Shown: in pieces, positions 2,437 through 33,393 of the stretch
Numbering within the stretch: position 1 is the stretch's first letter
Layout: each line of letters begins with the position of its first letter
Virus record (IMG/VR): IMGVR_UViG_3300028833_000069
Source of the DNA: a virus
Lineage: Duplodnaviria; Heunggongvirae; Uroviricota; Caudoviricetes
Reading direction: 5' to 3' (one strand)
DNA: 33,393 nt
Translations under genes and position numbers: made by a program
The notes under the pieces: generated by a model
Databases searched by the model: none
Seen by the model: the letters and a program-made list of their open reading frames with translations, nothing else
What the model was told of the DNA's origin: nothing

Positions 2437-5400
2437 TTATTCTTTATTTAATGGAGTGTAAAACTTACCACCTTGTTTATAAACTATAAATGCAGGAGTT
2501 TGTTCGATACCCATTAAAATAGGAGTTCTACTCATAGAAGTAGGAGCAAACTCAGCACCAATTGGAGTACCAGCATTAAATGCATTAACACCAGTAGTAT
2601 TTAAGTGTTGTTGGTATCTTTGCATGAATGCATTGTGCTCTTTAGGGCTCATAGCATCCCAGAAATCATTTGGATTTTCTTTACCAAAATACCAACCTTT
2701 CTTTGTAGCAGGAGTACTTGTAGGAGCTGGTGTACTAACTGGAGCTTTTACTTGTTTAGGAGCAAAGAACAAAGCTCTATTTCTTCCTGTAGCAATATCT
2801 ACATCAGAAGCAAGTGGCCCAAGTCTTCTTTCTAGTCTTTCATTACCAGGAACTCCATAATCAAATGCAACTCTTTCAGGTTTGAAATTCTGTTCTGCAA
2901 GAGGATTATTAAACTGAGTTACTCTACCTCTCCAGAATTTCCATTGCATTTTCTTATCTGGAACTAATTCAAGGTCTTGATTTCCACCAATGTTTCTTAA
3001 CAGCTTGTTAGCTTCTTGTAAATCAGGAGCTGTTTGTAACTTCTTGAGTTCTTCAGCTGTTAAAGGAACTTCAACATCAGTTAACTTTCCTGTAGCAGTG
3101 TTAGCTTGTTTAGCTTTAATCTTAAAGAACTTCTTATCACTCTGTGCAAGTAATGCATTGTTTTGTGCTTTCTTAGTCTTATAACCACTTGCTGCTTGTC
3201 TGTTAAGACCTGCAATCATACTAAGACCTTGAATAAGAGTTCTCCAATCATTAGCAGTCATATCCTTACCTTCACCATTTATAAGTTTTGTAAAGGCTTG
3301 TTTGTAGTTTTCAGAATTACCAATGAATTCAAATCCTGCCATAATTGGAGTAGCAAATTTGGATAAAGTCTTAACAACCTTACCAACTTTACCTACACCT
3401 CCAAACAAACCTACAACATCAAAAGCTAAGTTAACTCCCAAGTTACCAATGTCTCTCCATTGGAAACCATCTTCAGTAATATCAGCAACTAAGTTATTAA
3501 CAGAAGAACCTACTCCAAGAACAGCTGAAGCAGCAGTACCATAACCAGGAATCCAAGCAGCTACAATAGAACTTAAATCTGCAATAGCAGAACCAAGTCT
3601 TTGCCAATCTTGTGCAGACCAACCATCTACACCTGGCATTCTGTTAGCAGCAGCTTCTTCTGTAATAGAGTTTGCTTCACCAGCACCAAAATAGCCAATC
3701 CTTGTCTTATCCCACTTACCATTACTTTGTTCACTAAGCGGAATTTTAGTACCTTTCTTAGCTGTGATTACACCACCTTCTTTTTTATTGTATATAGAAT
3801 TGTGAGCTGTTCTAATAATGTTTCTCAATTCAAGAATTTGTCCTTCAGTAAACTTAATATCTCCACTTCTATACTTTTGATTTAACCAAGCACCAAGTGC
3901 ATGAGCTTGTTGTTCACCATTTCTAGCATTATACAAGTCAGAACCAGCAATTCTTTTAAGAGAATCCATGAATCTGTTGAAATCTCCTGCATTATTAACA
4001 GTAAACATTCTATCCCAAGCTCTCACTAACTCAGGATTAGCTTCTCCAGTAAATAAAGTTTCATACTTTACTTCATTTGGAAAATCTTCTGTACCAAGTT
4101 CATTATCTCCCTGAATTACATAATTAAAAGGAGTATTTCCTAAATTAAAGGCAACACTATTACCGTTTGTGTCTTTGTAATATAATGGAGAGTTATTTCC
4201 TAATTCATAAGTTCCATAGAAGTTTTGACTTCTTTTTCCTCCTAACATCCAGATAGGTTTAGTACTACCAAACTGTCTACTAAAATCATAGAATCTCATG
4301 TCAGAAGGAGCTATATTTGACCTATAGAACCCTGCTGCTTGTGCATCACTTATATTATCTAAGAACAGGTTAACATCATAATAAGGAACCAAATCAGATT
4401 GTTGTTGCTGAATTGCTTGAGTTCTAGTAGTTAAGAAGTTCTTTAAATTGTTATCCAAACCATACTTAACTTGGTCTTCTTGTGCATTTGTACCATAATG
4501 TAACTTACCACTTGGGTCTACATAATAGTAATTGTTGAATTGAGGGTCTCTATAATCATAGTTAATGTCACCCTTGCCAATTTGAGTTTGGTCTGTTGTC
4601 CACCAAGCACCATCTCTAAATACCCAAGAGTTACCAAGATTACCAGAACCCCAAAGATTAGGAGTTGTAATCTTACCTGGTTTTACATTTCCTGGGCTTG
4701 CAGGACCACTTGGAGTAGTCGGGTCTGCTTCAGGAAACAATTGTTTAATCCATTCATTATCACCTCCAAGGTCTCTCCATAACTTCTTAGCATCTTTTCT
4801 GTTAGTCAAAGCTGCCATTCTCTCTGCAAGAGTAGAAGCATCAAAACCATGAGGAGTAATAAAGTTCCACTTAGATTTATTCTCTTCAGAATTATCAGAA
4901 TTGTATCTGTCAAGAGTTGCTTGAATTCTCCTATTCATAGCCTGAATTCTGGTAGCATCACTATTGTAATTGGTAGACATGTCACCAGTTTCATTCATAA
5001 CAGAACTCCAATCCCAATCAATTACAGAAGAAGAGGTTCCTTTTGGAGTAGCTTTCTTTCCTTTATGTTGATTATAACCAGCATATACATATCTGACAAT
5101 CTGGCCTGTCTCACTTTGAGAAGGATTAGTGTCACTATGATGTAATCTGCCAAAGAAATTCTTATCAGGAATTCTAGCACTTGCATTAGTTAGATGGAAG
5201 AAATCTCTATATTGACTATAATCATCTCCATCTAATGTGCCAAGTAAGTATTTCTTAGCATCATTTGTTACATGAGCTGCATCTGCTGGTCTAAGTTTAT
5301 AGGCAGAAGAATAGTTATTAACACCTGCTAAGATGTTCTCCCAATCTTGTTTTGTTTCAGCATCCAAACCAGCATATGCCTTATTGTAAGCCTGGTCCAA

Positions 5401-6231: not shown

Positions 6232-6825
6232 TTACTCATCAACATACTAAGCTGGCCTAGAATCTTGAGCTTTTATCTCTTTAATTACAGCTCTACCCAA
6301 CTTTTTATAATCTTTTTCTTCATCAGATTTATATGCTCTTAATGCAAGAGTAATTAGTTTTCTAGTAGATATTCTACTGAATATTCTCTCACCACCGTTA
6401 AGTGACATCTGTACATCTCCATCACTGTCTAGAACTAAGAGTTTAGAGTTTTTAACTTGCTCCTCTTCTGCCTTCTCAGTTTCCTCATCAAAATCTACTT
6501 CTAATAAATCTCCTGGTTCTACACCAGATTTAGGATTAACCTCCAATACATAAAGCACATTTTTTTCAAAAACAGGCTCTTCTGCATAAGGTTTCATTGT
6601 ATGTACAGATATTACTTCACAGTTATCATCAATAAATATAATATCTAAAGGTATACCAGTATCTTCCATTGTATAACCAATCTCTTCTTGAGGTTCATCA
6701 TAAACAAAAAGCATACCAGAATCAAGTGGAAGCCAAGTTTCATTACTTAACCCCACCTCCCTTTCTTCTTCTGTAGAAGCTACAAGGACATTATATTTTT
6801 TACCTCCAATTCTAATCTGCTTCAT
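6232..6825 (-). CDS. DUF192 family protein with an extra C-terminal domain (197 aa with TAG=Gln)
   Basis: DUF192 motifs VASTEEEREVGLS, GMLFVY, M.DTGIPLDIIFID and YVLEVN. TAG at 6247 is followed by YVDE and TAA at 6232. Confidence 0.8.
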
Positions 6826-8330
6826 TGTTTATCCTCCAAGTCATTGATTAAACCAGTATTATCTTCTGTATTAGACATAAGTTCTTTACAGAGTAATTTA
6901 CCAGCATAAATAAGATACTTATCATCTTTAGTTTCATCATATTTATCTCTACAGTATTCCAGTTTTTTAGTAAGAGATAAATTGAGAATTAACTCATTCT
7001 CTTCAATTTCTGCATGTTGCACAATCTCACCACCTTTTTGTTTAATTTCTTCAAGAGTAGTAGGAGTGCCTTCTGTAGAAATTACAGGAATACCTTTTTT
7101 TGTTATATCTTCAAGGTCTATATGATTTTTGTTCTTATGTAACGCTCCTTCTGGAATTACATTAGGTTCCTTACCAGTCTGTACTCCTTCAAGACTATGC
7201 TTCTTATCTTCAGCAAGTTTCTTTCTTCTAGCAATTACATAATCAGACATAGACTTTAATCTAGCACCATGCTTAGCTGCTAATATAGATGTATCAACAC
7301 CACCTGCTAAAGCTAACTGATTTGCAAGCATTACATCATTTAAAGAAGCTTGTCTAGCTTTTTGTTCAAATTTAGCATCTTCTACTAAGTTCTTGGCTTT
7401 CATTGCCATTTCAGCTTGTGCATTTCTTCTCTCATTCTTTCTCTCCTGGGCTCCTCTTTGCCAACTTCTACCAGATGATTCTTCAAAGTGACCAAGACCT
7501 GAACCATATGAGTTTGTATCAAGATTTACATGGAATCCTTCAACCTTTGAACCAAATGCTTTATCTGCAAAGTTAACTGCTTTTAAAGCAGCAGCTGCTG
7601 CCATAGCATATGGATTACCACTTGCCATAAGACCATTAGAAACAGTATCAACTCCAGCATCAATCATATTGGAAGTTTCATCCATTTTAAGGTCTTGTGT
7701 CATTAACTTATCAGCAGTACCTACAACAGAATTAACAACAGAAGCAGCTTTACCAACAACCTGACCAGCCTTTGCTGCTCTAGCAGCTCTTGCTTCAGCA
7801 GCCTTCTGTCCATCTGCATTTGCAGCATCAATTTGTTCTTGAGTTAAGTTAGCAGAAACAGCTTCATCTTGTTGTATTGAGGAATTCAAAGATTCTAACT
7901 GTGAAACATCATCAGGAGTTGCAATACCTCTATCAACTTTTAATTGAAGCTCTGTTTGCTTTAACTTATTTTGCCCAAGTCTAGCTTGTGCTTCTTGATA
8001 CTTAGTTGCTTGTAAGTCTTTAGCAGCATTATAAGCATTAGCATTAGCACTACTAGTAATTCTTCTCACATAAGCCTGACTAGGAGTATACTGAGATGAG
8101 CCAGCATAACCTGGAAACAATACATCCATAGTATTCATTAATGCACTGTTACCAGCAAACTGTGTACCAGGATACATTTGCCCAGGACTTTGCTCACCAA
8201 GTGCAGTAGTACCAGGAGGAGTTGTAACTCCTACAACCCCTCCTTGACTATCAGCAGCTTGGCTCATTGCACTAATCTAAGCATCACTAAAGCCCAACTG
8301 TAGAAGACCATTTATTTGTTCTTGTGTCAT
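6822..8330 (-). CDS. Putative cargo/ejection protein, Ala-rich and helical (502 aa with TAG=Gln)
   Basis: ATG at 8330 directly follows the upstream TAA. TAG at 8277, then the 481-aa ORF. The TGA stop overlaps the next ATG. Confidence 0.7.
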
Positions 8331-8331
8331 A

Positions 8332-11300
8332 TTAAGCAAAACTATAATCAAACAAAGTAGTGACACCTTGTATGATCGCAAGGTTTTCACCTGAATATCT
8401 TACCTTTACTTTAAGGTATTTATCTCTAAGTCTAGCTTCTATTGGAGCTGTAAAATTAACATCTCCAGCAGTAATTACCCAAGTATCTTCTGTGGGCTGT
8501 CTGAAGATTATTTCAGATTCAGAATTATCTGCAAGTACTGTCATTTCAACAATAGAGCAATTCTCACTAACTGAGAAGTAAATCTTGTTCAGACCTTTCT
8601 CAATAAATTGAGGTTCTTCTATATTGTCAAAGTAAACATAACAGTCATTATTAGAAAGTGTTTCAAAAGAGTACAGAATACCTTTTTTAAACTTACCATA
8701 TAACTTGAATGTAGTACTTGTAATACCTGTTAACTTCTTCAATTGCATAATATCTTCATCAACAGTAACTTCAGCTTGAGAAGATTCTTTTTCTCTTGCT
8801 TTAAATCTTTGTTGAGTATCATCCTTAAGTAAAGCATAGGAGAATCTAACAGGTCTTAATTCTACTCTCCACAAATCTTCTAGATACTGCATATTACCAG
8901 CAGCTCTACCATATTTCTTAATATCAACACCAAGTTGTTCTGTATGAACTCTGTTCTCATGTAACTGGGTGTCTTCTATCAGACAAGTTTCAACACAGTT
9001 GTTAAGATATTCAAAATCATTAGAACCTGTTTCTAAAGCTCTTTCTTTAATATCATTCTCAACCTGTGCTTTTTCAAATTCTGTAAATTCAACAAAGTAA
9101 GGAATCTTTGGGAATTTATAGGAAGCATCTTTACCAAATAATGTTGGGAAATCATCTTGCTTAATTAAATCTCCATAAGTACTTTCTAAAACTTGTTTAT
9201 ACAAATACTTTAGATTTTCTTCATAATTTCCTGGTAAAGTCTCAGCTTTACTATTTATCCACTCAATTACTTCTTTATATTCCCACCATTCATAAGACTC
9301 ACCAACTACTTCAAATTCAAACTTCTTAGGCTCTGCCTTATTTGAAAGAATCATTAAGTTATTGAATATCTTTTGAATCTATGGAGCTTCATTTACAATA
9401 AACTCAAAATTAAACTCATGCTGCTTACCATACCAGTTAGCAGGTTTAATCTTACCTTGATTATCATATAAACCTGCTTGACCATGTTTCCACAATTCCA
9501 TGAAGTCACTTGCAGTTCTTATTTCATAAGGTGCATGGTCTCCATCTGAAATTGGGTCAGACTCATCAGTAAGTTGAGTATAGTAATCAATTGTTTTTAA
9601 CTTATTGTTAATCTTATTGTAAATTTCAAAGTCTTCCTTAATTTCTGTAAAGTGAGGTTCACAGAGTTCTAATTGCTCTGCTTGCTTACTTGCTATAGTA
9701 ATGTAACTTCCTTTCTTCAAAGTACTATATTTGAAATATATACTGAAGAATTTCCAAGCATCATCATTACTTGAGCCTTTTGCAATGTTATTTTGTACTT
9801 CAATGGTATCACCTTCAAATACAAAATCTTTCTTTTCATACTCGCCATTCAGAACTAAATCTACATCATTTGTAGTTTTGATATAGAAGCTTAAACAAGC
9901 AATACTATCATCTGTAAGCCCCATATCTTTTAATGGCTCTGTAGAAGGTCTACTGGTACCAAGAACAATTACATACTTATAGTCAGTATCACTATAAGTA
10001 CTGTTCTCATCATCTACTTCATAGGTATATACATTGGTAAATCCAGTGTATGCTCCATCAATATTTGATTTCAGTTCTTGATAAGTACCTTCACCTTTTA
10101 TTGCATTAGGATAAACCTATAAGATTGCATTATAAGGTGTAAAGCCATCATTAAGTTTTTGATTCAAACTATCTTGAATCTTTAAGAATTTATCTCTATC
10201 AAAAGAGAAGAAAATATTATCAATATTCTGTGATAATACAGGATACCAATCATAGAAAGTAGTGAACTTTTGAGTTACAAGATTATAACACAAAGACCAC
10301 TTAATATTTCTATCATTGTTATAAAAAGTAAAGATAACATCCCTCTTGAAAGCATTATAGTGTGTAACAACATTCTTCTTTCCTAAATCTTCTTGCATGT
10401 CAAACTCTGACAAGTCTAAGTGGTCATTTAAGAATTTCTGTACTTTAAAGTCAGAAATACAAGTAAGTTCTCCATTATAAAGCCAAATCTTCTTAGCAAC
10501 TGTATCTACACCAAAAATACCAGATTCTGTCTTAATAATAGAGTCTTTCCACATAGAACCATATATGTCAGAAACAACAACAGGAGTTTCAGGTAATACA
10601 GAATTAGAGCCAATGTAAATTGGTCCACCTTCTGTAGCAGAAGTCATTGCTCTTTCATTTACTGTTAAGAAGAGGATACCATGCTCACATACACAAATAA
10701 TATTACCATTGTAATCTACAATCTTGGTAATAGAACCATAAATCTTTGGATAATCTCTATAAGCACTTTCATAGATTACTCTATAACCATTCTTAATAGA
10801 ATTATTTACAGATATTTCTGACCACCAAATTCTTGTATTATATTCTTCTTTAAAGAATGGTACATCAGGTAATTGTAAGTATTTCTTACTTGGTACTGAA
10901 ATAGCACAAGCACCATTTATAACATCAGAATCTTGTTGTGTACTATGTGCATCTAAGTTATTAGAGAATGGGAAGAAATCTCTTTTCTTACCAAAAATAA
11001 CTTCCTCTTCAGGATGATTATAATCAATGTCTCTTAATGACAAGTTGATAGAACAACAAACAGGGAATGTAATCCATGTACCAATTGGTACTGCATTAAC
11101 ATCAGCTCTGTTAATGTTAGACAAACCTCTTGTAACCCATTCTTCTTCCTTAACAGTACTGATGATAGAACCAAAGATTTTCTTTAATGTTCCACCACTA
11201 CTACTAGATTCCTAACTTTGTGGGTCAAGAGCCTTGTAGTTACTGTTTTCTTGCATATCTCCATTTATATTAACAGAGAATGCTTGAACTACTTCATTAG

Positions 11301-18731: not shown

Positions 18732-19433
18732 TTAGTGTGCAATATGAGCACTAAGCCCATACAATTTTCTGTTAAATGATGTCTGTACATCAAGTACTTC
18801 ATCAATAACATTTTGGTTAATATGTTCAGGAATTCTAGCTAATTGACTAAGCTTAATCCATTCCTGTTTTTCTGCTTGTGCTAGCTGGAATGTTGAAGCA
18901 TCCCTAGTTAATCTAGCTTTTTTAAAATCTTCTGAATATGCACAATACATTGCAATTGCTTGCATTTCTCTTTCTGTAAGATAAGGTAATTCATTTTCAT
19001 CCATATAGTGACCAAGATAGTAAAGATGAACTTCACCATAGTTTTTATTGAACACTAACTTATCACCTAAATCTTCAAAAAGTGCAAATTCATTATGTGT
19101 ATATAAACGATGAGAATTTCTTCTCCTTAATTCAATATCAGACTCAATTGAGTATGCCCCACCTGCATACCATTCATGAGTAGTAGTAAGCTCTTTAACA
19201 TCTAAAAATTTAGTTGTTACAGCTTCTATATAAACAAGGTTACATGGTTTATAAACATACCACCCTTCAGGTCCTCTTTGAACCTTTAATACAGTATGAT
19301 ACATCCTAGTATCTTTGTTTCCTATTTTATTGAAGGCTACCATACCTATGGTTTCAAATGTATCCTCATCTAAATCAACACCATAAAGGTCATTAGCCAA
19401 AGCTAATGCTGAATAAAAATTATATTTTTTCAT
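18732..19433 (-). CDS. crAss-like tail ring/tubular protein (233 aa)
   Basis: Clean ORF, translationally coupled to the upstream gene (TAATG). Its size, position and Y.G...DENELPY motif fit crAss ring proteins. Confidence 0.6.
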   Translation of the reverse strand: MKKYNFYSALALANDLYGVDLDEDTFETIGMVAFNKIGNKDTRMYHTVLKVQRGPEGWYVYKPCNLVYIEAVTTKFLDVKELTTTHEWYAGGAYSIESDIELRRRNSHRLYTHNEFALFEDLGDKLVFNKNYGEVHLYYLGHYMDENELPYLTEREMQAIAMYCAYSEDFKKARLTRDASTFQLAQAEKQEWIKLSQLARIPEHINQNVIDEVLDVQTSFNRKLYGLSAHIAH

Positions 19434-20098
19434 TATTTAGGAACTTGATTATTTGGCATTGGTGGTTGCCAATATTGTTTGTAATATGATAGGTATTTTT
19501 GTGTTAACCTTCTTTCAACTTCATTATTTATAGCAGAGAAATTTTCAGAATCTGCTAAATCACAACAACCCCATTCTGCAACTTGTCTTGGATCTTTAAA
19601 AATTGCTTCAACTGATATTATTTCAAGCATTGGAGCATTAAATACCCAGCCATCATAAAGATTATCTGCATTAGGAGTAGTATCAATATATACATAAGGA
19701 GATTTGCTTCTCCTCATTCTAAACTTATGAAATCTAAAGTTCTTATTTGTATATACTTTGAAAGGTATTTGTTTGTCAACTGTACCAATGTAAACAATGC
19801 CCTCATCCCCAAAGTCATTGATTATTTGTGGTATCTGGAAATGTTGCTCTGGTTGAGAATAATCTCCTGAACAGCATTTGTCCAAAGACTTACAGTCTAA
19901 CTTAATACAGTTGATTGCATATGTTAAATCCTTTACAGGAATAAGATTTCTTTTTGAGTACTCTTGTATAACTTGTAATCTTTCTGCTACTACAGCATCT
20001 TCTAATTGTTCAATGGAGATATTAAGAGTAGCATTATAACCACTCAATCCACTAACAACATTATTATACACAGCACTTGCTAATTTGCTTACATTCAT
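19433..20098 (-). CDS. crAss-like tail ring protein (221 aa)
   Basis: Clean ORF with Cys cluster CIKLDCKSLDKCC, PYVYID and AIFKDPR motifs; lies in the head-tail module. Confidence 0.6.
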   Translation of the reverse strand: MNVSKLASAVYNNVVSGLSGYNATLNISIEQLEDAVVAERLQVIQEYSKRNLIPVKDLTYAINCIKLDCKSLDKCCSGDYSQPEQHFQIPQIINDFGDEGIVYIGTVDKQIPFKVYTNKNFRFHKFRMRRSKSPYVYIDTTPNADNLYDGWVFNAPMLEIISVEAIFKDPRQVAEWGCCDLADSENFSAINNEVERRLTQKYLSYYKQYWQPPMPNNQVPK

Positions 20099-28293: not shown

Positions 28294-29817
28294 TTATGAA
28301 ATAATTACATTTATTGCAGAACCAGTTTGGATGTCACCACTTCTATAAACATCATATTGTACTTCCAAACCATACTGATTAGTTATTGTTTCAGTTGTCT
28401 TAACCCAACCTGTATAAGATAAACCACCAACAGTAGTTGTTATGTTTCCAAGAGCATGAGGGATTGCATAATAAAAATATTTACCACCAGAACAGTCATA
28501 AGTGATTGTTTTTGCTTTAGAGTTACTAAGTTCTGAACTAGAAATCTCATCAGCATGTAAATCAGGATATTCACTTACACCCCAGAATCTTTTATAACTA
28601 AAATTAACAGAAGCTGTTGCAGAATTAGTATCACTACCAGTTGCTTTTACAACTTTATTATTACTTACAATCAAACCACTCTTAGGAGCACTTAATGTAC
28701 AAGTAAATGTTCTATTACTTGTTATTCCTGCTACTTCAAGTCTATCTGATATGAGAGCATCTTCACCAAATATAAAATTACCAGTTATTGTAGTAGGTGC
28801 TTTCTAATACTCACTTGGAGCATAATATCTAGCAACACCACTGAAATCTATAATAGCTCCTTTCTCAACAGTTAGAGATGTCTAAGTACTAGTAACCACA
28901 TGAGTATTATCTTGTTTTTTAATATCCCATTCAGGACTAATAAAGGGCTAAACTAATAATAAATCACCAACATAGTTACTACCATCTTTGTTCATCTTAG
29001 TATCTAAACTATTATTGATTGCAGTAATCTAGTCGTTAATACCATTTATAGTAGAATCAATATCTTCTTTATTATAATATTCATCTGCTACTTTTTGTAT
29101 CAAGGCTTCAAGATCTTCTTGCTTAGCAATTGTTTCATCAACTGCAATTTCATAACCAATAACTACATTGTTTTGTTTAATCTCAGTTACTGCAATACCC
29201 TCACCTTGTGATATAATGGTCTTTGTTAAACCTTGTAATTGTTCAAGAACCCATTCGGTTGTGGCAAAAATAGAAACATCTGGACCAAGCAAAATCCAGA
29301 CTCTGCCATTCCAGATATATTCATCTGTACCAGCTCTATAAAAATCACCCTTATGCAACTATTCTACAGGAATTGCATCAAGCTCTTCTTTATCTGCTAC
29401 AATTCCACCAAAATGGAAGTAATCATCATATTTGGTTTCATCATTAGTGATTCTTTCACTAAGTGCTTGATCGAGATCATTGATCATTGCTTCTAATCTA
29501 GCAAATTCACCATCTCCACCACTAACTTGATATAGATATATAAGAGATCCTTGTAAAAGTTTACACAAGTGTCCAAGGTCTTCCTTAGTAAGGAATTTAG
29601 CACCATTATCAAATCTAATTACTACTTCAGAAAGTTGTCTAAGTAAATCATCTAAACTTGTTATGTTTGGGTATGGTTCAGAATAAATGTTTTGTGCAGT
29701 TGTCTGCAAAGATTCTAAATCCCTTACTAAATAACTATTAGCTAATGTGTGATCCAAACTTCTGGAAGTACCAATTGGATTTATAAAAATTGGAATTTGT
29801 ACTTGTCCATTATTCAT
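28294..29817 (-). CDS. Tail fibre/structural protein (507 aa with TAG=Gln)
   Basis: Three listed ORFs join through TAGs at 29359, 29029, 28948, 28882 and 28804; TAA at 28294. Contains a GDFY...EYIWNG..W..LG module and a C-terminal beta-rich domain (GKYFYYAIP...Y.VYRS). Confidence 0.7.
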
Positions 29818-29818
29818 G

Positions 29819-31120
29819 TTAGTTGTAATAATAATATTTTTGTTTATTTAATATTGTCGTTGCAAAAGGAAGATATTCATTGTCCCTAACAAGTCTATCT
29901 TTCAATACAGAAGAAGCTGTAATAAATACATAGTCTTCAGATTCTATATCATTATCTAAATAAGCAAATCTTACTACTATTTTTTCTTCTCCTTTAATAG
30001 GCACTACCTCAAACTGTTTAATAGCAATTAACTTACCAATAACATCTGTTATACTAACTCTTTTATCAGTTGGTACACCTAACCAGTTATCATAGCCCTT
30101 CTTTTCAGCTAAAGATTGATACTACATTTTCTTAAATAAATTTATGTTTCTATCACCTTTTATAGATAGCCAAAAACCAATAGACTTGGTTAATTGTAGC
30201 CACCCTAGGTAACTAGCCATCTGTTGTTTAAATGTATGATCGTCAACACCTCTTTTATTAAGTCTAGCTGCTTTTCTTCTTATTTTTATATAAAGGTGTC
30301 TTTGTAATGTCATTTTATTTTCTGTAAATTTACAGCCAACCATTTTAACACCACACTTTACTGGAGCAATTCTAACATTATTTTTAATAGTTAATTTATA
30401 CTCATCAGCAAATTGTTGAAGTTCTTTAAGAAGTTTCTAAGCTTCTTCTTTAGTTGGAATAAACATTATTATATCATCCATATATCTAAAGTAAAACTTA
30501 ATTCCAAGAACTTCTTTAAAATAGTGGTCACATATAGATAAAAATAAATTAGCAAGATACTAGCTACTACCAACACCAATTGCTAAACCTTTTTTGTTTC
30601 TATCTATTAACTTTTCAAAATATCTTATTATTCTTTTATCTTTAAATACTTTTCTGACAATTTCTTTCATCTTTTCATGGTCAATAGACTCATAAAAATG
30701 TCTGAAATCTGTCTTTAAGTAATACCAATTTTGATGTTTACTTACTACTACAGAAAGTGACTTAGCTAATCTGTGTAAACCTCTATATTGTAAACTACCA
30801 TAAGAACAATAAGGTATTCTATCTAATAATTCCCATTTTACTATTCTTAGTACAGCATGGTCAATTATTTTATCTGGATAAAGCTTTGGGGCATGTATAT
30901 CTCTTTCTTTAGGTTCATAAACTTTAAATGAAAACAAAGGACTTAAAGTATATGTTTCATTTTTTAAGTTTGTATATATTTCTTCAATTATTTCATCATG
31001 CTTTTCCCAAGCAGCTTTAACAGCTTTCTTGTTTTTACAAACTCTCAATGCTTCTTTAAAAGCATTTTCCAAGTTCATTTTGTCATAAACTTGTTCCCAA
31101 GTAACTTTGGACTTCTTCAT
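29819..31120 (-). CDS. DGR reverse transcriptase with a fused ~100-aa C-terminal domain (433 aa with TAG=Gln)
   Basis: RT motifs FKVYEPKERDI, PDKIIDHA, YYLKTDFRHFYESIDH, GLAIGVGSS[Q]YLANLFL (DGR-type SQ), YFRYMDD (YMDD at 30473-30484) and SYLGW. TAGs at 30560, 30437 and 30122; the first TAA is at 29819. Confidence 0.9.
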
Positions 31121-31149
31121 ATCCAGTCCTGTTAACAAGTCATCTTCAG

Positions 31150-31347
31150 CATTAGCTTACCAACACCTTGTCGTTATACTGTGTTTTGTTGTTAAACAAC
31201 AAGGTCTAGCCAGGTTTGGTGCTATGTACACCTTAATTATAAGAACTGTTTGGAGGCAAACCCATTCACATTGTTAGCATTGTTAACATTGTTAGCATTG
31301 TTAGCACGCCCCAAGCCATAGAGGGAAAGCCTGACCTGGCTAGACCT
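31150..31347 (-). ncRNA. DGR template RNA (TR plus structured flanks/spacer)
   Basis: Intergenic region upstream of the RT. Holds the AAY-rich TR, a perfect 14-bp inverted repeat (31202-31215 / 31334-31347) and an 11-bp stem (31165-31175 / 31195-31205). Boundaries are approximate. Confidence 0.7.
31251..31330 (-). repeat. DGR template repeat (TR)
   Basis: Minus strand ...CGT GCT AAC AAT GCT AAC AAT GTT AAC AAT GCT AAC AAT GTG AAT GGG TTT GCC TCC A. Positions 31251-31290 align without gaps to 33354-33393 with 10 mismatches, all at TR adenines. The 5' boundary is uncertain because the VR is cut by the window edge. Confidence 0.92.
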
Positions 31348-31355
31348 ATATATAT

Positions 31356-31622
31356 TTATTTTCTAATTATCTTAAAATAGGTATTTGTTATTGAACCAGC
31401 ACCACCTTCACTACCAGGAGTACCTGTAGTTGGATAGGGAGCTTCTTTCAATGAGATACCTCTAACATTTATATTGGAAACAGCTTCTGGCCCATTTAAG
31501 AATTGGAAGTAACTCAGAGATAAACCCCTCAACACTTCCTCAATAGGACTGTGAGCTTCTTCACCTTCAAGAAACTAAAAGTAACTTAAAGATATTCCTC
31601 TCAAGAGTACATCACTATCCAT
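31356..31622 (-). CDS. Small hypothetical protein with an internal repeat (88 aa with TAG=Gln)
   Basis: MDSDVLLRGISLSYF[TAG]FLEGEEAHSPIEEVLRGLSLSYFQFLNGPEAVSNINVRGISLKEAPYPTTGTPGSEGGAGSITNTYFKIIRK-TAA. The ATG is 1 nt after the target gene stop. Not in the ORF track. Confidence 0.75.
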
Positions 31623-31623
31623 A

Positions 31624-33393
31624 TTATACACTCTTTGTTACAAATACTGCAAATTGCATATAAGGTTGATCTAATACAGATTTAGTTCCTGCCATAATTG
31701 AGCCATTAGCTTGATAAGAATATGGATTACCAGAACCAAGCAACTGATCATTGATTGTACTTCTGTTAATTACTCCATTACTCTTTAAAGCAAAATATTC
31801 TCCTCTAGTAGCAGCTGGAACCCAAGGAGCAGTTGGAACCAATCTTTCGCTATCTGCTGCTGCAATTTCTTCATCTGTTCTATCATCAAACATCATTGCA
31901 ATTTGATATGCATTGTCTTCTGGACAAATAAATGTTGCAGTTGTTTCAGCTACAAAAGATTCTCCTGGTACAATAGTTCTGCCATTAAAACTGATGCTTT
32001 TACCATTTTCAGGATTATAATAAGTTATACCTTGAATAAGAGTATTACCAGAAGTAACTGTTCTATATACACTTGATCTACATCTGCAATATACAACATT
32101 CTGTACATTTGGATCATTGATAGCATATGCATAAATAGTTCCATCTGCTCCAGCACTCATGTTATACTTATTATATTCTCCTGTTACTGCATCTGCTGTT
32201 ACTACAAGCATATCATCTGCTTTATATGCTACATAATCAGCATAAGTAGGATGCCAATACATAACTCTATCATCTACAGATGCTTGATCATCTGCTCTTA
32301 ACAAATACTTACCAGCTGGAAGAGAATCTCCAGGACCATATTTAGCAACTACTTGATTGCCATTACCATCATCTTTAGTGCCAATGTAGTCATCAGTGTT
32401 CATTGTTATACCTTTGTCAGTAATATGGTCAGATTGTAAAGCATAGACTCCATTATACTGAAGTTCAGCAGGATTCATCTTCATTATCTTGGATAAGATT
32501 GCACCAGTTGTTGCAACAGAACCTTCATTGATTTTAATGCTTCCATTTTCAATCTTTAAGCATCCTGTAAGTGTTCTATTATCAAAACACCAAGTATGTC
32601 CATCTGAAGCTGTTCTAATGTTCTCTGTTTCTCCATATACTTGGATATGTGCAGCAGGAGGTAATGCCCCATAATAAATATTGTTTTCAGGGAATATACA
32701 AGCTGCTGTTGGTTTTAATGTAAAATCTAAACCATCTGGATCATTAAAGATGTCATATGCACTTTGATCAGGGAATATACAAGCATTACTACCAGTACCA
32801 AATTGCATTGAATTAGATTCTGTAATTAAACTTAATCTAACCATTGCTGGTATAACATGAGAAATGTTTGGAGTAACACCTTCATCAACTACTACTGTAA
32901 TTGTTATGGTATCATTCTCATCATCATATGCATATCCTTCTGTATCTCCTGTTTCCCAGAGTACTTGCCAGTTTTTAGTTGTATTATTAGCACCACCTGC
33001 TCTGTAAACATAATATCTACAGTCATTAGCAAAACAACAGTTTATAAAATAATCTCTACTATTTTCAGAACCTGTTGCTACAAAGAAATCCCACTTCGAG
33101 TATACACATCTGTTACCATAGTGTCTACCAGTTACAGCGCCAGTACCTCTTCTACCTACATTTTGTCCAGTAACACCTTGTCTATCTATTCTTGTATTGT
33201 AATATGTACAATAAGTTGAAGCAGATCCAGAATAATTACTCAGAATAACAGGACAACCTGTGTTTCTAATAATATCTGAATAGATTATTCTAGTGGGGGA
33301 AGATCCCCCACATCCCCCTCTCCATAGTTTACTGTGGTGTACCAGGACTGGACTGGAGGCAAACCCAGACACACTGCCAGCACCGCCAACATA
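31624..33393 (-). CDS. DGR target protein (putative tail spike/adhesin), 5' end outside the window
   Basis: The frame is open for 590 codons from the window edge to TAA at 31624. The VR is in frame at the window edge (YVGGAGSVSGFAS). Confidence 0.85.
   Translation of the reverse strand, partial: YVGGAGSVSGFASSPVLVHHSKLWRGGCGGSSPTRIIYSDIIRNTGCPVILSNYSGSASTYCTYYNTRIDRQGVTGQNVGRRGTGAVTGRHYGNRCVYSKWDFFVATGSENSRDYFINCCFANDCRYYVYRAGGANNTTKNWQVLWETGDTEGYAYDDENDTITITVVVDEGVTPNISHVIPAMVRLSLITESNSMQFGTGSNACIFPDQSAYDIFNDPDGLDFTLKPTAACIFPENNIYYGALPPAAHIQVYGETENIRTASDGHTWCFDNRTLTGCLKIENGSIKINEGSVATTGAILSKIMKMNPAELQYNGVYALQSDHITDKGITMNTDDYIGTKDDGNGNQVVAKYGPGDSLPAGKYLLRADDQASVDDRVMYWHPTYADYVAYKADDMLVVTADAVTGEYNKYNMSAGADGTIYAYAINDPNVQNVVYCRCRSSVYRTVTSGNTLIQGITYYNPENGKSISFNGRTIVPGESFVAETTATFICPEDNAYQIAMMFDDRTDEEIAAADSERLVPTAPWVPAATRGEYFALKSNGVINRSTINDQLLGSGNPYSYQANGSIMAGTKSVLDQPYMQFAVFVTKSV
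33293..33311. promoter_or_regulatory. GC-rich hairpin/cruciform downstream of the VR (candidate DGR target-recognition element)
   Basis: GTGGGGGA-AGA-TCCCCCAC, a perfect 8-bp stem 42 nt past the VR end in an otherwise AT-rich gene. Confidence 0.7.
33354..33393 (-). repeat. DGR variable repeat (VR), truncated by the window edge
   Basis: TAT GTT GGC GGT GCT GGC AGT GTG TCT GGG TTT GCC TCC A versus TR AAT GTT AAC AAT GCT AAC AAT GTG AAT GGG TTT GCC TCC A. Confidence 0.92.

Follow-up and report, generated by a model that had tools for sequence, protein, structure and literature searches.

A conserved module of predicted OB topology is fused to the reverse transcriptase of a phage diversity-generating retroelement that reads TAG as glutamine

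To our knowledge, the accessory protein Avd is essential in the only diversity-generating retroelement (DGR) that has been studied biochemically. About a quarter of DGRs have no avd gene, and these include an abundant lineage of gut Bacteroides phages (Hankyphage, crAss-like phages). Here we describe the DGR reverse transcriptase (RT) encoded by the Caudoviricetes record IMGVR_UViG_3300028833_000069 and, in particular, a conserved C-terminal module that is fused to this enzyme and has a predicted oligonucleotide/oligosaccharide-binding (OB) topology. The whole stretch of DNA that we analysed, 33,393 nucleotides (nt) long, is referred to as the window.

For comparison with phage BPP-1 we used the structures of its RT (bRT) with the Avd pentamer and DGR RNA (PDB 8ub7-8ubf); the RNA wraps bRT and overlies the Avd barrel (bioRxiv 10.1101/2023.10.23.563531). 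The core of the window RT belongs to the same family as bRT. A profile search of the PDB finds bRT (8ub7_A) with an E value of 6.9e-58, while the next family reaches 8.9e-30 (group II intron and retron RTs far behind), and in a Foldseek search with the full-length RT model the same chain ranks first, with a TM score of 0.84 normalised to bRT. The window also resembles BPP-1 in that the template repeat (TR) and the variable repeat (VR) differ only at adenines. However, bRT (328 residues) ends where the thumb ends, is spanned whole by profile positions 2-319 and has no C-terminal module. Its helper is Avd, a separate helical barrel encoded between target and TR, whereas the candidate helper in the window is a fused domain predicted to be a beta-barrel.

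RT extensions and DGRs without avd have both been reported before. Approximately 20% of DGR RTs continue for up to ~150 residues past the thumb with no identifiable motif, lineage 3 has no avd and probably follows an Avd-independent mechanism, and the avd-less lineages have other small flanking genes, the accessory genes being CH1, MSL and HRDC (Wu et al. 2018, PMC5758913). The preliminary description of this DNA, which was made from its letters without database searches, had proposed an Avd-independent DGR architecture; Avd independence had already been suggested, and unexplained extensions had been described. No fold, family definition or fused/split relationship is given for the extensions by Wu et al., and our full-text searches of the DGR literature found no fold for an RT extension and no mention of coexisting fused and split forms. 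The fold prediction, the family definition and the fused/split relationship of the RT extension are new here.

Two phages are the closest described systems. Hankyphage (Bacteroides phage p00, BK010646) has the order target-VR-TR-RT and a 434-residue RT with a homologous C-terminal module, so that the window does not, as had been claimed, define the architecture: the same RT-plus-tail was already published there, uninterrupted. Hankyphage differs from the window in that it uses the standard code and carries its VR at the C terminus of a 2245-residue tail fibre, and the two RTs are ~26% identical. The crAss-like phage LMMB (MT006214) has the order TG-VR-TR-RT, no avd (PMC7290462) and an RT of 431 residues. 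LMMB and near-identical crAssphage records contain the most similar phage RTs in our collection, with ~33% identity over residues 5-375. The LMMB record is annotated with the standard code. The module profile misses the RT tail of this phage even at an E value of 10, and the tail may be very divergent or may be a different domain.

The RT of the window is a single open frame that starts at TTG 31138 or ATG 31120 and, with TAG translated as glutamine, runs to TAA 29819-29821. Residue numbers given here follow the 439-residue numbering of protein P0001, counted from the TTG. The frame passes through TAG 30122, as the preliminary description had proposed. The peptide quoted there, SYLGWLQLT ... 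YQSLAEKKGYDNWLGVPTDKRVSITD ... LPFATTILNKQKYYYYN, is the exact translation with TAG as glutamine, and the in-frame ATG noted just before this TAG is indeed present (ATG 30127-30125, TAG 30124-30122), the letters of the minus strand at the junction being ...AAG AAA ATG TAG TAT CAA TCT... It was also correct that standard-code annotation misses the fusion. Translation table 11 splits the RT region into pieces at 30560-31138 and 30122-30343 and leaves in the tail only a 61-residue fragment that starts with GTG (29819-30004). A 186-residue fragment of the same RT, read in code 11, is recorded on a 168.5-kb JGI contig.

The window supports a reading of TAG as glutamine in this gut phage. Forty-one in-frame TAGs are spread over 16 of the 21 long open reading frames (ORFs) of the window, all of which lie on the minus strand, and these 21 ORFs end with TAA (19) or TGA (two) and never with TAG. 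The glutamine of the SQ motif of the RT is itself encoded by TAG, and in an 88-residue ORF (31356-31622) TAG stands at the position at which the matching repeat unit has CAA. Since TAG never terminates, and since both the SQ motif and the repeats point to the same amino acid, the assignment is not arbitrary. A database protein that is 93% identical to the window RT (P0004, 433 residues, from a cluster of 50 members) begins at the position of ATG 31120 and carries glutamine at all three TAG positions. No suppressor tRNA(CUA) was found in the window by ARAGORN, which predicts a tRNA-Leu(TAA) as the sole tRNA there. This tRNA lies at 7531-7618 on the minus strand, inside a 522-residue ORF (6822-8390), so that either the ORF begins elsewhere or the tRNA prediction is false.

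The translated protein is clearly a DGR RT. Its palm matches the Pfam family RVT_1 (E 7.5e-16), the whole protein belongs to the reverse transcriptase family phrog_1423 of PHROG (E 7e-79), and motif 4 of DGR RTs ([I/L/V]GxxxSQ) is present as IGVGSSQ, with a glutamine column that is invariant in comparison with the RTs of Hankyphage and LMMB. The full-length model has a mean predicted local distance difference test score (pLDDT) of 86.8.

To define the tail as a family, we searched 1.8 billion representative proteins with its 100 residues in a full HMMER scan and obtained 39 homologues. About half of these are RTs of 409-478 residues that carry the module at the extreme C terminus. The remainder are proteins of ~95-120 residues that start at a methionine aligned with Met338; they begin MEYKRLSE..., where the window RT has M-Q(TAG)-YQSLAE. 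Residues S362, I363, K386, F391, T407, S409, D414, R415, P424 and Y435 of the module are invariant or nearly so, and the conserved set is completed by the rest of VSI (361-363) and of P424-F425. Across fused RTs that are 33-41% identical to the window RT, the module is as well conserved as the RT body. The tail is a real, conserved domain, present lineage-wide in one subgroup of Avd-less DGR RTs, the Hankyphage type.

The module occurs in both fused and free forms. Fusion without any stop codon is seen in the standard-code RT of Hankyphage (pairwise E 4e-4 together with a profile match), in three Bacteroidales and two Paludibacteraceae genomes (L084, L085, L119, L086 and L087) and in eight database proteins (P0007, P0014-16, P0019, P0020, P0022 and P0025). 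Locus L164 (standard code, 54% GC) has target, TR and RT (4001-4999) in this order, with a separate module gene of 97 residues (5001-5294) behind them. The TAA of this RT is followed by one base and by the ATG of the module in another frame, an arrangement of two coupled genes. A search of 401 Bacteroidota genomes with the module profile gave five matches, and all five are fused to, or stand beside, a DGR-type RT. One is fused (L165, at the same place as L084), three are free and lie ~300 nt past the RT stop (L167-L169), and the fifth (L166, reverse strand, nt 1269-1803) is an intact module behind a decayed RT. Only the first 67 and the last ~20 residues of that RT remain. Scans of viral contigs with the module alone, with P0010 or with P0013 gave no match, nor did a tblastn search of the phage collection with P0010; alignments A2 and A3 diverge too much to be used in pattern scans.

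In 28 further phage and bacterial loci, the second gene downstream of the RT encodes a member of a distantly related free-standing family, A5 (~128 residues). An hhalign comparison links A5 to the module with a probability of 96% (E 3e-9), and the A5 profile also matches the tail of the Hankyphage RT. Because the module is found fused and adjacent to the same enzyme, we infer that it is a subunit that works with this enzyme.

Several loci show related arrangements. In another clade of Avd-less DGRs, the RT is followed by a conserved protein of ~150 residues (cluster 5) and then by the ~128-residue A5 protein, an order seen in L006, L014, L015, L020 and about 22 more loci. The gene for the cluster 5 protein may correspond to the accessory gene CH1 described by Wu et al. 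2018. In L149 (4998-6420) and in L161 it is fused to the C terminus of the RT and thus forms a second fused/split pair. In L073 (5920-6255) the module is out of frame with the RT, whose open frame it overlaps over the final ~280 nt, and it begins ~15 nt after a run of seven adenines; this could be a programmed frameshift, a pair of overlapping genes or a homopolymer assembly error.

We modelled the module alone with 21 sequences (pLDDT 83.6, predicted TM score 0.72). The elements follow each other in the order b1 (31-42), b2 (45-54), b3 (64-68), helix (71-79), b4 (86-93) and b5 (96-99), and the same elements recur in the full-length RT model. The predicted fold is an OB arrangement, a five-stranded beta-barrel whose helix follows strand 3 and precedes strand 4, which bears out the suggestion that the tail is beta-rich and possibly OB-like. 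In the full-length model, residues 336-349 between thumb and module fall below a pLDDT of 50, and the module therefore looks tethered and not rigidly packed.

The fold matches from structural searches are weak. In an all-against-representatives search with VIA-align, OB-fold proteins that bind single strands make up ~40 of the 50 best rows, with Z scores of 4.0-6.0. The matches include Rim1 (Z 6.0), the OB domain of RuvBL2 (5.7) and a bacterial single-stranded DNA-binding protein (SSB, 5.4), followed by editosome OB proteins, PriB, RPA, CST and Teb1. OB-fold SSBs of bacteria, mitochondria and phages and the OB domains of Teb1 and RPA have the same strand and helix order as predicted for the module and are its best structural matches, but no sequence relationship to them was found. 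The top Foldseek rows in the PDB (E ≥0.07) are B subunits of AB5 toxins, themselves OB folds. Among the viral models of BFVD, C-terminal parts of other viral RTs score best (E 2e-5 to 3e-4), ahead of phage ssDNA-binding proteins. A feature score of 0.83 in the Atlas between the module and phi29-type SSB clusters serves as a lead only. At the level of sequence, the window tail matches no Pfam family at E ≤0.1, with the exception of a chance SH3 match, and none of the 21 members of the module family matches any Pfam family.

The module is not a form of Avd. Its model is mostly beta, with five main strands and one main helix, and it matches no profile of Avd or of a four-helix bundle, whereas Avd is an all-helical four-helix bundle of about 110-130 residues. 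Pfam scans of the window ORFs tested gave no match to PF05635 or PF22296, neither family was found adjoining any module carrier, and the phage records of Hankyphage and LMMB contain no PF05635 match anywhere. In nine module-bearing bacterial genomes, matches to PF05635 and PF22296 do exist, but they lie on different contigs or at distances of hundreds of kilobases. The proposed test for mutual exclusivity of module and avd has no power here, because nearly all related RT loci lack PF05635 either way: when the 82 phage records whose RTs are most similar were compared, 81 had no match to this family, whether the module was present or not.

The module is a good candidate for the helper of these Avd-less systems. 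We think it rather probable that it is the RT's own accessory, a putative binder of single-stranded nucleic acid that covers part of the scaffolding role of Avd. A predicted flexible linker of ~14 residues connects the module to the thumb, and in this phage the linker includes a TAG-encoded glutamine. Tethered in this way, the module would hold either the emerging cDNA or the DGR RNA on the flanks of the template, and would take over at least part of the scaffolding that the Avd barrel provides in the BPP-1 ribonucleoprotein. In related elements, the same autonomous module is supplied by a small gene that follows the RT directly or within ~300 nt. Such a role has a precedent in the telomerase holoenzyme, where OB domains of Teb1 and RPA assist the reverse transcriptase in holding single-stranded nucleic acid. 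We consider possible but doubtful the stronger claim that the OB-like module is a functional replacement of Avd, which would bind the DGR RNA, the nascent cDNA or both and would be needed for cis-primed, adenine-mutagenic cDNA synthesis. The preliminary description is partly supported in its overall interpretation; its claim that the module substitutes for Avd was overstated.

Several observations weigh against an Avd-like accessory role. The VIA-align Z scores of up to 6 stay below the caution level of this tool, which is 8 and below which a match perhaps reflects a common arrangement only. With the module as query, Foldseek found no PDB entry at E ≤0.001 (best E 0.07), and neither Pfam nor a PDB profile search extended to an E value of 10 links the sequence to a named OB or SSB family. 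The module of the window is mildly acidic, with a pI of 5.4 as against a family median of 8.6. An avd gene could also lie upstream of the target, since the window ends inside the target gene, and the 88-residue ORF between target and TR could be a second DGR accessory protein or the real helper itself. Finally, most related Avd-less RTs have neither module nor Avd. In approximately 130 of 151 related RTs, the RT core is followed by fewer than 60 residues, and because these RTs have no long tail, the module is not a general answer to Avd-less retrohoming; related Avd-less RTs evidently can work without the module or with other partners.

The last observation would be expected if the module stood outside the core priming machinery, since most Avd-less relatives manage without it. 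It might instead act once synthesis is over and protect the single-stranded cDNA or deliver it to the VR, recruit host recombination or replication factors, or act as a protein-protein adaptor. SSB-like OB folds, to which the best fold matches of the module belong, commonly coat single-stranded DNA and recruit partners, and the acidity of the window copy fits such a role as well. Yet the strict adjacency or fusion to the RT suits a role of this kind and the scaffolding role alike, and computation cannot separate the two. On balance we regard a function apart from cDNA synthesis of the Avd type as unlikely.

A different question is what the TAG at the junction does. If it were a true stop, the RT would end at Met338, and the downstream frame would be untranslated or a decaying remnant. 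Under table 11 the frame is indeed broken at TAG 30122. However, TAG interrupts 16 of the 21 ORFs of the window and ends none, the RT would be inactive unless TAG encoded the glutamine of the SQ motif, and homologues are fused without any stop. The tail is moreover 93% identical in P0004 and is conserved down to ~30% identity with its invariant residues in place. A true stop at TAG 30122 is effectively refuted. The junction might still give rise to two products, either through a free 102-residue module that starts at Met338 or through inefficient decoding of TAG, which would yield a tail-less RT (residues 1-338), and thereby tune the ratio of RT to helper. Most fused homologues retain Met338, and the free-standing forms start at this same methionine; TAG-339 falls inside the linker that is predicted to be disordered, and both split and fused forms occur in nature. 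Nevertheless, Met338 may be a leftover of gene fusion, and several fused homologues have leucine, isoleucine or no methionine at this position. Two earlier codons also require TAG to be read as glutamine, so that stopping at TAG-339 would go along with truncation of the enzyme at residue 192. We therefore consider regulated production of two forms quite improbable.

The coordinates of the features are collected in Table 1.

Table 1. Features of the DGR locus, in window coordinates
Feature	Position	Strand	Details
DGR RT coding sequence	29819..31120	(-)	433 residues from ATG 31120; stop TAA 29819-29821; three codons require TAG=Gln
RT body (fingers, palm, thumb)	30128..31120	(-)	YMDD, residues 219-222; IGVGSSQ with TAG-encoded Q193
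C-terminal module, residues 338-439	29822..30127	(-)	predicted OB-like topology; ~100 residues
Flexible linker between thumb and module, residues 336-349	30092..30133	(-)	pLDDT <50 in full-length model; includes Gln339
In-frame TAG, Gln193, invariant Q of GxxxSQ	30560..30562	(-)	translation and RT alignment
In-frame TAG, Gln234	30437..30439	(-)	translation
In-frame TAG, Gln339 in linker, after ATG 30125-30127 (Met338)	30122..30124	(-)	direct reading
Template repeat, visible part	31251..31305	(-)	run of AAC/AAT codons ending in GGGTTTGCCTCC
88-residue ORF between target stop and TR, usual avd slot	31356..31622	(-)	repeat LRG[IL]SLSYFQFL[EN]G
Target gene	31624..33393	(-)	589 codons visible, 5' end outside window; no Pfam or PHROG family
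Variable repeat, cut by window end	33354..33393	(-)	same frame as long target ORF

The TR (31251-31289) and the VR (33354-33392) are 77% identical and have the 3' sequence GGGTTTGCCTCC in common. Every mismatch between them lies at a TR adenine of the coding strand. The 5' limit of the TR cannot be placed because the VR runs past the end of the window. About 575 target codons follow the VR in frame, and the VR is therefore not at the C terminus of the target. The order target-TR-RT on one strand, with no Avd family in the ORFs tested of a window that ends inside the target, fits the Avd-less lineage 3 and architecture A, which has this order and lacks avd, HRDC and MSL genes. The nearest phage RTs are those of LMMB and Hankyphage, and LMMB has been assigned to lineage 3 (PMC7290462).

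The preliminary description had seen no Avd-like ORF between target, TR and RT. No Avd match is found there, but the interval does contain a real ORF, which is not Avd-like by sequence. This 88-residue ORF begins 2 nt past the TAA of the target, finishes ~50 nt ahead of the TR and holds two and a half copies of its repeat. The two full copies differ at eight synonymous and two non-synonymous positions, the TAG/CAA pair included, and because the differences are mostly synonymous, the ORF is under selection at the protein level. It matches no Pfam or PHROG family, and the sole homologue found, P0075, is 99% identical. We also considered whether the ORF is a copy of the OB-like module and rejected this, as it bears no relation to the module alignment A2.

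The gene after the RT (28294-29817, minus strand) encodes a protein of 507 residues, contains five TAGs and matches no family significantly. Table 11 makes an ORF of its own from the 152 codons that precede the first TAG. In Hankyphage, the RT is followed instead by a DUF4376 gene of 161 residues. The Hankyphage gene labelled 'Avd' (L003:4302-4787, PV107404, equal to L001:6302-6787, BK010646) matches DUF4376 (E 1e-6) and phrog_19239 and not PF05635 or PF22296, and the helical N-terminal part of 152 residues in the window is unrelated both to this gene and to any Pfam family. Similar genes, which form a large cluster and have a C terminus like that of tail assembly chaperones, follow the RT in ~40 other loci. 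Elsewhere in the window, positions 19433-20098 (minus strand) weakly match PF25702, the family of crAss tail ring protein 2, with an E value of 3.6e-5 that does not reach the cut-off. This match and the fact that the RT is most similar to those in crAssphage records suggest a crAss-like source phage.

For annotation, the lesson from this locus is that gene calling with table 11 truncates the RT and also conceals its C-terminal domain. If the module does replace Avd, it would be a second class of DGR helper, with no structural relation to the first, and would account for the functioning of at least one branch of Avd-less DGRs. For the engineering of DGR mutagenesis systems, a single polypeptide that combines RT and helper would also be attractive. 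For the question of how Avd-less DGRs prime and control mutagenic cDNA synthesis, the RT-linked module, in its fused and split forms, offers a concrete experimental target.

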